From contig JAPLXO010000011.1 of the NCBI GenBank assembly GCA_026396065.1, positions 74,748 through 138,747 on the forward strand: DNA of 64,000 nt. The letters are read 5' to 3'. Both the position numbers and the translations under genes were made by a program. The stretch's first letter is position 1, and every line of letters begins with the position of its first letter. The stretch comes from Candidatus Nomurabacteria bacterium. GTDB lineage: Bacteria; Patescibacteriota; Minisyncoccia; Phycocordibacterales; UBA9973. The notes below the pieces were generated by a model, which saw only the letters and a program-made list of their open reading frames with translations, was not told where the DNA came from and did no database searches. Shown piece by piece: positions 7,060-8,445 of the stretch.

Positions 7060-8445
7060 CTACAAAGAACCTTTCATGTAAAAATCCTGTTCAGCTTTCT
7101 CATCGTGCTTACCATCAAGAATTTCACGGAATGAACGGATAGTGTCTGCGAGCGGGACGTATTGTCCTGGAGCGCCGGTGAATTGTTCGGCGACGAAGAA
7201 TGGCTGTGAAAGGAATTTTTGGATCTTGCGAGCGCGGGCGACGAGTTCACGGTCGGCATCGGAAAGTTCTTCGATACCGAGGATGGCGATGATGTCTTGG
7301 AGGTCCTTGTATCTTTGCAAGACTCTTTGCACTTCACGAGCGACTTCGTAGTGCTCCTTTCCGACGATGTTCGGATCGAGGATTGTAGATGAAGAGTCGA
7401 GCGGATCAACAGCTGGGTAAATACCGATTTCAGAAAGTGAACGGTTGAGCACCACAGTAGAGTCGAGGTGAGAGAATGTCGTCGCTGGAGCTGGGTCGGT
7501 GAGGTCGTCGGCTGGCACGTAGACGGCTTGGACAGATGTCACAGAGCCTTTGTCGGTACTGGTGATGCGTTCTTGTAGATTTCCCATTTCTGTCGCGAGA
7601 GTCGGCTGGTATCCCACGGCTGAAGGAATACGGCCGAGGAGCGCAGACACTTCGGAACCTGCCTGTGTGAAGCGGAAAATGTTGTCGATGAAGAAGAGGA
7701 CGTCTTTGCCTTCTTGGTCGCGGAAGTGTTCCGCCATGGTGAGACCTGAAAGCGCCACACGTAGACGAGCACCTGGTGGTTCGTTCATTTGCCCGAAGAC
7801 CATCGCCACTTTGTCGAGAACTTTGGAATCTTTCATTTCGTGGTAAAGGTCGTTACCTTCACGAGTACGCTCTCCGACACCTGCGAATACAGAATATCCG
7901 CCGTGGTTTGATGCGATGTTGTGAATGAGCTCTTGGATGACGACAGTCTTACCAACGCCAGCACCTCCGAAGAGACCGACTTTTCCTCCTTTCAAAACAG
8001 GACAGATGAGGTCGATGACTTTGATACCAGTTTCGAGGATTTCGATCTTAGTTGATTGAGAGACATAGTCTGGGGCTTTGCGGTGAATCGGTGAAGTGCC
8101 TGCGTTTACCGCTGCACCGTCGTCGATCACTGCGCCGAGGACGTTGAAGATTCTTCCAAGTGTTTCTTTACCGACTGGTACGGAAATAGGTTTGCCTGTA
8201 TTCATGACTTCTTGCCCGCGAGCGAGGCCATCAGTAGTGTCCATAGCCACTGTACGCACGACTCCTCCGCCGATATTCTGCTCGACTTCGAGGATGATTT
8301 TCTTGTCACCATTCCCCGCCTGCTCCCGACCACCCGGGAGGGCGGGCAGGATCACCTCAAGCGCACTGTAAATCTCTGGGACTTCTCCTTCGAAAGCCAC
8401 ATCCACGACCGGTCCGATTATTCTTTTTATTGTTCCTTTGTTCAT
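7060..8445 (-). CDS. atpD: F0F1 ATP synthase subunit beta
   Basis: Walker [10 protein letters not shown] and full-length beta-subunit conservation; N-terminal region carries a ~12-aa insertion ([13 protein letters not shown]) encoded by a GC-rich palindrome. Confidence 0.95.
8314..8350. repeat. GC-rich palindromic mini-element (family B), in-frame within atpD
   Basis: ccccgcctgctcccgaccacccgggagggcgggcagg is near-identical to the two elements at 33005 and 33050; it encodes the extra [12 protein letters not shown] segment absent from typical AtpD. Confidence 0.55.

Follow-up and report, generated by a model that had tools for sequence, protein, structure and literature searches.

A family of short GC-rich palindromes, here called family B, is described from a stretch of 64,000 nucleotides of a Candidatus Nomurabacteria bacterium (contig JAPLXO010000011.1, positions 74,748 to 138,747 of the forward strand; hereafter the window), where one copy lies in frame in atpD, the gene for the F1 ATP synthase beta subunit, and two interrupt a displaced fragment of a tRNA-Glu gene next to a small GIY-YIG nuclease gene. 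That B is a non-autonomous mobile DNA palindrome, tolerated and presumably translated within open reading frames (ORFs), is well supported. The account favoured here goes one step further: B would be mobile at the level of DNA, be translated when in frame and probably have spread with the help of the GIY-YIG nuclease. In-frame insertion of the palindrome into conserved protein genes concerns atpD and approximately 28 further ORF hosts.

Three copies of family B in an AT-rich window

The window is AT-rich, with a GC content of approximately 32%, the atp genes being GC-richer, and carries three family B copies, each a GC-rich palindrome of 35-36 nt whose exact boundaries were set by comparison with empty sites. 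The 36-nt copy I1 (8315-8350, minus strand) is in frame in atpD and reads CCTGCCCGCCCTCCCGGGTGGTCGGGAGCAGGCGGG on the coding strand. The copies I2 (33005-33039, plus strand) and I3 (33050-33084, plus strand), of 35 nt each, follow nt 12, at the 5' D-stem/loop junction, and nt 22, respectively, of the displaced tRNA-Glu fragment. The initial annotation, made from the letters of the window alone, had proposed a distinct GC-rich hairpin family located in frame in atpD and twice in a duplicated tRNA-Glu fragment, and this proposal is supported. All three strings that it quoted are present at the coordinates it gave, with small corrections to their extent: its 37-nt atpD string contains one flanking base too many, and base 33085 of its third string is part of the tRNA fragment.

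That the three copies align better than random GC-rich sequence was borne out in two ways. The shared core GCCCTCCYG-N2-6-GTCGGGAGC has three matches in the window versus none in 100 dinucleotide-preserving shuffles, and a profile hidden Markov model built only from the B copies of other genomes matched just I1-I3 in the window, with E-values of 1e-10 to 2e-9. Compared with shuffles, the hairpin folding of the three copies gave z-scores of -2.7, -3.4 and -1.8.

Insertion of B in the ATP synthase beta subunit

The host gene of I1, atpD (7060-8445, minus strand), is an ORF whose homologues carry PF02874 and PF00006 and whose product matches solved F1 beta subunits of the Protein Data Bank with an E-value of 1e-206. 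The AtpD of the window has 461 aa and most of 120 close homologues 449-451 aa. That the copy is in frame and adds 12 residues was confirmed by DNA alignment with the empty-site orthologue at locus L003, which places exactly 36 nt between the T and the G of one ATG codon; the empty target site is GAGGTGAT|GAATGG, and through the insertion ALEV-M-NGDKK gains 12 residues and its Met becomes Ile. Comparison of filled with empty atpD revealed no target-site duplication. The ALEV and ILEV strings on either side, regarded as duplicated motifs in the initial annotation, are instead two native beta strands present in all orthologues, with no target duplication at the DNA level. A check of orthologues agrees with an insertion, as the nearest ones (P0001 and P0003-P0006), with AtpD sequences 96-98% identical to that of the window outside the loop, have an empty site. 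The 36-nt copy, as read from the sequence, contains no stop codon in any frame of either strand, and it is presumably simply translated as 12 extra residues.

The insert corresponds approximately to residues 33-44 of AtpD and lies in the loop that joins two strands of the N-terminal beta-barrel. An AlphaFold2 model of the protein is poor overall (mean predicted local distance difference test score, pLDDT, of 47) and was used only for the confident N-terminal barrel, in which strands 27-33 and 48-59 flank the insert loop and residues 37-45 have a pLDDT below 50. Location in a crown-domain loop, as had been suggested, is thus consistent with the model, which predicts a low-confidence loop between confident beta strands. 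Escherichia coli AtpD presumably has only QNGNE at this position, and the loop of a solved Bacillus-type beta subunit is similarly short. The same barrel loop carries other, unrelated inserts of 7-16 residues rich in P, S, T, G and Q (such as PSTSSGQ and DPSSKDGQS) in a number of relatives (P0008, P0018, P0026, P0029, P0039, P0046, P0093, P0109 and P0111; L201, 590-640), and in Paceibacteria this site seems to be a hot spot of GC-rich insertion in general. A metagenome scan for AtpD relatives returned mostly distant sequences, from which little was gained.

Variation in the length of this loop in many Paceibacteria, with several unrelated inserts, would fit an ordinary lineage-specific indel in atpD or a palindrome created locally by slippage or template switching, the likeness to the tRNA-Glu copies being coincidental. 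This explanation can practically be dismissed, as I1 is base-for-base identical to a copy in topA of a Saccharibacteria metagenome-assembled genome (MAG; L015), near-identical copies occupy more than 100 other unrelated sites, the core pattern lacks matches in shuffles of the window and the closest orthologues possess the empty site.

Short forms of the palindrome are found at the same place. In P0002, which is 97% identical to the window AtpD outside the loop, the identical position is occupied by the perfect 18-nt palindrome CCTGCCTGCGCAGGCAGG, which encodes LPAQAG and equals the outer arms of B minus the inner hairpin. The same 18-mer occurs at this site in a separate clade (P0035, P0049 and P0085); P0090 has the 12-mer CCTGCCGGCAGG there and P0007 an apparently mutated or decayed long form. 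In the genome of P0002 (L001), the closest relative, the 18-mer is present four times within 3.2 kb, once each in atpA and atpG and twice in atpD, in all four cases in phase to read LPAQAG, and three of the four sites are unoccupied in both the window and L003. A 20-nt version resides in a tRNA T-loop fragment of a Marinimicrobia genome (L065). This size series, together with sites that are filled differently in close relatives, argues that short and long forms constitute one dynamic CCTGCC...GGCAGG palindrome family, in which B copies may decay by central deletions in steps of a multiple of three nucleotides (36 to 18 to 12 nt).

One palindrome in several phyla

One genome per species (representatives of the Genome Taxonomy Database) was scanned with the pattern GCCCTCCYG-N2-6-GTCGGGAGC-N-GGC-N-GG, which fixes 22 bases, and up to approximately 8 kb were examined per locus. 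The scan resulted in 113 loci, which are distributed over Patescibacteria (39 loci, in Saccharibacteria, Paceibacteria/Nomurabacteria, Dojkabacteria and Chisholmbacteria), Marinimicrobia (22 loci), the lineages of the Planctomycetota-Verrucomicrobiota-Chlamydiota (PVC) group (25 loci, in Verrucomicrobiota, Lentisphaerota, Kiritimatiellota and Planctomycetota), Omnitrophota (6 loci) and unclassified MAGs (17 loci). One further locus is labelled Pseudomonadales and probably mis-binned, and three in high-GC genomes (L027, L052 and L058) are likely chance matches. Though outside the search pattern, the 5' seven nucleotides read CCYGCCN in 99 of 110 copies, and this retention of the 5' arm validates the homology independently of the pattern. 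As one 35-nt sequence is common to Patescibacteria, Marinimicrobia and Planctomycetota, either horizontal spread or a strong sequence-specific constraint has to be assumed. A search for B in 2.9 million viral contigs and in the phages of GenBank gave no match. At gathering thresholds, the Rfam matches in 13 loci were all tRNAs, and the window locus had no credible match with E<=1; full-text literature searches retrieved no description of B or of bacterial GIY-YIG/tRNA-Glu cassettes, so that the family is apparently undescribed so far.

Two other classes of repeats were considered and rejected. Tandem copies in L093, L070 and L109 recall an array of clustered regularly interspaced short palindromic repeats (CRISPR), but their 'spacers' are identical, which identifies them as tandem duplications of a unit of tRNA fragment and B. 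An uptake-signal sequence does not agree with the copy number, which is far too low (three in 64 kb), nor with an identity across phyla that is unexpected for such signals. Nested B copies are present in L202 and L007.

The general form of B is CCYGCC-N-GCCCTCCYG, a loop of 3-4 nt and GTCGGGAGC-R-GGC-N-GG, which amounts to 35 nt, with 36-nt variants that have their extra base in the loop. Among 70 distinct sequences, positions 7 and -3 form Watson-Crick pairs in 76% versus 33% in shuffles and positions 3 and -7 in 86% versus 50% (p<=1e-4), while the plain palindromic, that is mirror, register pairs in only 6%. In the notation 5'-[CCxG][CCyG]...[Cx'GG][Cy'GG]-3', pairing of y with y' is possible on the top strand and that of x with x' on the bottom strand, each hairpin being left with a 4-nt 5' tail. 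As a consequence of this offset register the two ends of B are always unlike, one being CCTGCC and the other CCCGCC or CCAGCC. Maintenance of a hairpin on both strands through compensatory substitutions points to DNA, as single strands or as a cruciform, and not RNA as the substrate. Three comparisons of filled with empty sites revealed no target-site duplication, and the tRNA insertion sites of B are loops or stem-loop junctions.

Copies inside conserved protein genes

The length of the copies depends on where they reside. An ORF of at least 200 aa spans 28 of the 43 copies of 36 nt, compared with 13 of the 70 copies of 35 nt and none of the six copies of 34 nt; the enrichment of 36-nt copies in such ORFs (28/43 versus 13/76 for 34-35 nt) has an odds ratio of 9 (p 2e-7), and the odds ratio is 8.5 (p 1.5e-5) for low-GC loci alone. 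Copies within ORFs are found in both orientations and make use of all six reading frames (one example of an encoded peptide being RLLPTNREGGQ), from which it follows that the DNA and not a peptide is conserved. The bias for lengths divisible by three implies that the insert is read through. Hosts identified by Pfam include DnaG, TopA, RarA/MgsA, two Mur ligases, a ClpB-like ATPase, GltX and UvrB, as well as ComEC (twice, at the same site within 1 nt), Ddl, CysS, MiaA, DnaK, a DEAD-box helicase and RsmH.

A GC-rich hairpin that is stable in an AT-rich genome could alternatively act as RNA, be it a structured RNA, a mini-intron or a signal for translational bypass, and would then be removed or skipped, leaving the host protein unchanged. 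Bypass reading has precedents in the GC-rich byp elements of yeast mitochondria and in the gap of phage T4 gene 60, and a complete tRNA-Met interrupted by B (L100, see below) would need the element removed to function. Nevertheless, action as RNA is very improbable. Copies in ORFs are selectively a multiple of three nucleotides long, which would be needless if B were removed or bypassed, they occur in both orientations and six frames, and the 36-nt copy of the window is stop-free in every frame on both strands. In addition, no Rfam family was matched, and the covariation fits hairpins on both DNA strands and not on one transcript strand. Excision of B in silico followed by ARAGORN, performed with B considered as a tRNA intron, restored a full tRNA in only one of approximately 115 loci (L100), and the intron was rejected; all tRNA cases except L100 are fragments beside an intact gene.

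A displaced tRNA-Glu fragment and a GIY-YIG cassette

The claim of two copies inside a duplicated tRNA-Glu fragment holds, as I2 and I3 interrupt a 26-nt copy of the tRNA-Glu 5' end. The segment 32993-33088 (plus strand, as all features of this locus) reads ggccctatcgtc [I2] taacggttag [I3] gaca and, minus I2 and I3, is identical to nt 1-26 of tRNA-Glu(CTC). Its three pieces comprise nt 1-12 (ggccctatcgtc, 32993-33004), identical to the tRNA-Glu at 33337, nt 13-22 (taacggttag, 33040-33049) and nt 23-26 (gaca, 33085-33088), where the tRNA homology stops. Thirteen bases past I3 starts an ORF of 86 aa (33098-33358), which encodes a GIY-YIG nuclease consisting of the catalytic domain only (PF01541, E 4e-16, residues 1-72) and whose last seven codons and stop lie within the first 22 nt of the intact tRNA-Glu(CTC) (33337-33409; ARAGORN; Rfam tRNA, 57.6 bits), the 5' 26 nt of which are those duplicated upstream. 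PADLOC gave no meaningful defence-system match for the nuclease.

In the simplest history suggested by this arrangement, the GIY-YIG ORF together with a copy of the tRNA 5' end would have been inserted at approximately nt 26 of tRNA-Glu, thereby rebuilding the gene, and the old 5' piece would have stayed behind the original promoter as a dead relic. In the nearest RmuC relative, tRNA-Glu(CTC) stands directly behind the promoter without fragment, nuclease gene or B, with a different orientation and synteny, and in L105 and L011 several positions distinguish the displaced fragment from the rebuilt, cassette-borne tRNA 5' end. This naive tRNA-Glu and the differences in L105 and L011 suggest that the cassette is an insertion. 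Contigs with identical RmuC differ at tRNA-Glu, which is intact in L210 and L211 (4175-4247) and cut to its last few bases, followed by unrelated DNA, in L212 (2240-2260); on account of this difference tRNA-Glu appears to be a rearrangement hot spot in this lineage. Elsewhere in the window (15103-15269, minus strand), an exact copy of the 5' half of tRNA-Ile(GAT), 37 nt long (15233-15269), lies ahead of this gene, the two being separated by a spacer of 57 nt. This locus contains neither B nor an ORF, and a tRNA-targeting cassette since lost may have left the duplicate as a scar.

Pairing of B with the nuclease at tRNA genes

The neighbourhood of B and the GIY-YIG nuclease is recurrent. With the window protein as tblastn query, a homologue was found at most 250 nt from B in 15 of 113 loci compared with none of 88 control loci (373 kb). 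All-versus-all clustering of every ORF up to 600 nt from B showed the GIY-YIG family, present in 18 loci, to be the only genuine recurrent neighbour, in every case at a displaced tRNA fragment, the remaining clusters being translations of B, of tRNA or of the nuclease antisense strand, and no transposase-like or Y1 gene recurred within this distance.

In Patescibacteria the order is always promoter, tRNA-Glu 5' fragment with B, GIY-YIG gene and tRNA-Glu. Within the fragment, B follows nt 5 (L061, L042), nt 12 (window, L064, L108, L105, L011, L054, L206) or nt 22 (window, L099 and, as a decayed copy, L206), and these three different positions indicate independent insertions. The arrangement in Marinimicrobia consists of tRNA-Leu or tRNA-Met, a displaced 3' fragment with B in the T-loop and a GIY-YIG gene, whose product is approximately 40% identical, with two units of fragment, B and nuclease in tandem in L071. 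Of 160 homologues of the nuclease, about half terminate in the peptide that the 5' end of tRNA-Glu encodes; in a set of 120, about half end in ALSSNG, GPIV or similar, which is the translated 5' end of tRNA-Glu, so that fusion of the ORF with the tRNA is the rule for this GIY-YIG subfamily. Three cassettes (L202, L205 and L206) were sampled through the protein alone, a sample unbiased towards B, and in all three the fragment contains B or a derivative of it. The copy of L202 is nested, and L205 is the same locus as L108. L206 has its two copies at the positions used in the window, nt 12 and nt 22; one of them has a loop of 10 nt and the other is decayed.

In the proposed mechanism, the small GIY-YIG nuclease would make breaks, or recognize the hairpin, and so let new sites receive a copy of the palindrome; from conserved genes, such copies would pass to other lineages through homologous recombination in the conserved flanks, resembling homing. 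That the nuclease mobilises B is the best available inference from the arrangement of the genes, and several observations weigh against it or against the wider account of B. The evidence is one of association within the loci examined. Approximately 95 of the 113 B loci (about 85%) have no GIY-YIG gene within 8 kb, among them all those of the PVC lineages and Omnitrophota, and many Marinimicrobia tRNA genes are accompanied by a 3' fragment with B and no nuclease nearby (L025, L030, L046, L085, L090, L093, L097, L109 and L113). In Neomarinimicrobiota T3L19 (L100, 150-290), a complete tRNA-Met is interrupted only by B in the T-loop, with neither an intact tRNA-Met copy nor a GIY-YIG cassette within 8 kb; it would be either a pseudogene or a case in which B must be removed. 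The protein of 86 aa comprises just the catalytic domain and shows no obvious module for DNA binding, and the intact tRNA-Glu beside the cassette has the same sequence as the fragment, which makes a simple scheme of protection of the cleavage site by B incomplete. A strong target motif was rejected, as the flanks of B gave a weak R|GA preference only, and targeting of hairpin loops was not supported as a general rule, the insertion point lying in a predicted loop in 35% of 116 rebuilt and folded empty sites versus 32% of control positions (p 0.47). Furthermore, the 22 bases fixed by the search pattern are positions at which conservation is not judgeable, and translation of the ORF inserts is deduced from their length bias. 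Finally, a second small GIY-YIG ORF of the window (57094-57336, minus strand, 80 aa, PF01541), located between tandem paralogues of proteins of 558-584 aa (53.5-59 kb), adjoins neither a tRNA gene nor B.

The Marinimicrobia fragments without a nuclease, the interrupted tRNA-Met, the high proportion of B loci without a GIY-YIG gene and the second GIY-YIG gene without B would also be accommodated if B were mobile but the GIY-YIG nuclease uninvolved, its movement being due to a different, unlinked enzyme or to nothing more than recombination and transformation. B would then gather in the dead tRNA fragments that GIY-YIG cassettes happen to leave, either through a preference for tRNA-like DNA or because such insertions do no harm. 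This is a serious alternative, although the less probable one: no other protein family, transposase-like or not, is a recurrent neighbour of B, the pairing is found in two phyla with GIY-YIG proteins only approximately 40% identical and with different tRNA targets, and every cassette sampled through the protein carries B. Moreover, some relics of fragment and B, as in L042, keep degraded remnants of a GIY-YIG ORF, so that absence of the gene can be a secondary loss. We retain as the favoured account a mobile DNA palindrome assisted by the GIY-YIG nuclease.

A bolder extension, which we regard as speculative and rather unlikely, combines B and the mini GIY-YIG nuclease in a two-part, 'break-and-patch' selfish system. 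The nuclease would nick or cut the D- and T-loops of tRNA genes and loop-coding sites of housekeeping genes, and the palindrome would be copied in, making the site immune to recutting. At tRNA genes the patch would be lethal, so the cassette would bring a replacement tRNA end on which the host would then depend. As targets and flanks are universally conserved, such a pair could home across phyla by transformation and recombination, and it would represent a new class of GIY-YIG-catalysed DNA mobility in bacteria.

Relation to known palindromic elements and homing systems

B resembles the Rickettsia palindromic elements (RPE), the repetitive extragenic palindromes (REP) with their enzyme RAYT and the GC clusters of yeast mitochondria, and fits none of them. 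RPE (Ogata et al. 2000, summarised in PMC10969869) are elements of approximately 100-150 bp restricted to Rickettsia, with about ten families that each encode a conserved peptide in one frame. Common to both is palindromic selfish DNA that is located in frame in conserved housekeeping genes, is present or absent between close relatives and adds extra peptide segments tolerated in permissive regions. In contrast to RPE, which are 3-4 times longer, B has 35-36 nt and is GC-rich in AT-rich genomes; it can be read in any of the six frames, its sequence is almost uniform across several phyla, and a nuclease gene is linked to it.

REPs are extragenic, have a lineage-specific sequence and hundreds of copies, and the gene of the enzyme RAYT (TnpA-REP, HUH-Y1) is flanked by copies. 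As with REPs and the bacterial interspersed mosaic elements built from them, B consists of short, dispersed, GC-rich imperfect palindromes with a presumed enzyme gene linked and no target duplication, and a single-strand hairpin is the likely substrate, the hairpin of B being evident from folding and covariation. However, B has few copies per genome, many of which are inside ORFs, approximately one quarter of the whole in long ones, and the neighbouring gene encodes a GIY-YIG nuclease, no Y1 gene recurring. Unlike miniature inverted-repeat transposable elements, the whole of B is one hairpin, not a sequence with terminal inverted repeats and target duplication, and no parent insertion sequence is seen.

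The GC clusters of yeast and fungal mitochondria, such as GC42, come nearest to B in their size and composition, in nesting and in their proposed mobilisation by endonucleases encoded elsewhere; they are palindromic and have a putative AG target-site duplication (PMC4478555). Both are GC-rich palindromes of 30-45 nt in AT-rich genomes with rapid turnover, horizontal transfer and nesting or merging. While the clusters are organellar and associated with the AG duplication, B is bacterial, occurs in several phyla without duplication, is filtered in ORFs for lengths divisible by three and is associated with tRNA fragments.

The nuclease, on the other hand, recalls the GIY-YIG homing endonucleases of phage T4, of which SegB is a free-standing enzyme encoded in a tRNA gene cluster (PMC2330249); trans-homing of a separate insert has been described for mobE (PMC2790892). 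A nuclease at tRNA genes, a small cassette with flanking DNA and possible promotion of the spread of a separate nearby insert are shared features. Seg proteins, however, have approximately 200 aa or more, possess DNA-binding domains and are phage-borne, whereas the enzyme encoded in the window is a bare domain of 86 aa whose ORF ends inside a tRNA gene; the cassette rebuilds the displaced tRNA end, and phage or viral copies of B were not found in the viral sequences searched.

If B is mobile as proposed, conserved essential proteins of minimal-genome lineages routinely carry 12-residue inserts of selfish DNA that are not adaptations. Inserts in AtpD, DnaK, UvrB, TopA, DnaG and aminoacyl-tRNA synthetases would then matter for protein alignments, phylogenies and structure prediction in the candidate phyla radiation, and B would provide a tractable marker of gene flow among uncultured bacteria. 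The pairing with an 86-aa GIY-YIG protein would suggest mobilisation without HUH or DDE enzymes, possibly by a minimal structure-specific nuclease.

Other palindromes and inserts in the window

A different GC-rich palindrome, family A, reads CCCTCTCCTTATAAGGAGAGGG followed by GGGGTGAGG and has copies at 10030-10074, 10085-10121 and 10403-10439 in atpG as well as at 21948-21992, 29428-29469 and 60186-60222. The three atpG copies are in frame (PLLNKERGG..., PPLLNKEGNEG... and PLLVKERGNA) and absent from the L001 orthologue. In Candidatus Scalindua rubra (L007, 2040-2110), B is nested in a family-A-like element (...ctctttataagagaggggttag[B]gggtgag...), which demonstrates that families A and B co-occur and insert into one another outside Patescibacteria. 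A further GC-rich palindrome at 45830-45861, with a perfect 12-bp stem (GCGCCGCGACGC ... GCGTCGCGGCGC), is unrelated in sequence to either family, and a GC-rich island in atpC (6484-6513, GACACGCCGGAGCCTTCGGCGGAGGCGGTA), which encodes ...ASAEGSGVS..., possibly represents a further small insert. Between atpG and atpD, the window has an AT-rich, membrane-protein-like ORF of 423 aa (8488-9759, minus strand), where L001 contains only an ORF of 162 aa, and in L003 the atpG region is split into several short ORFs.

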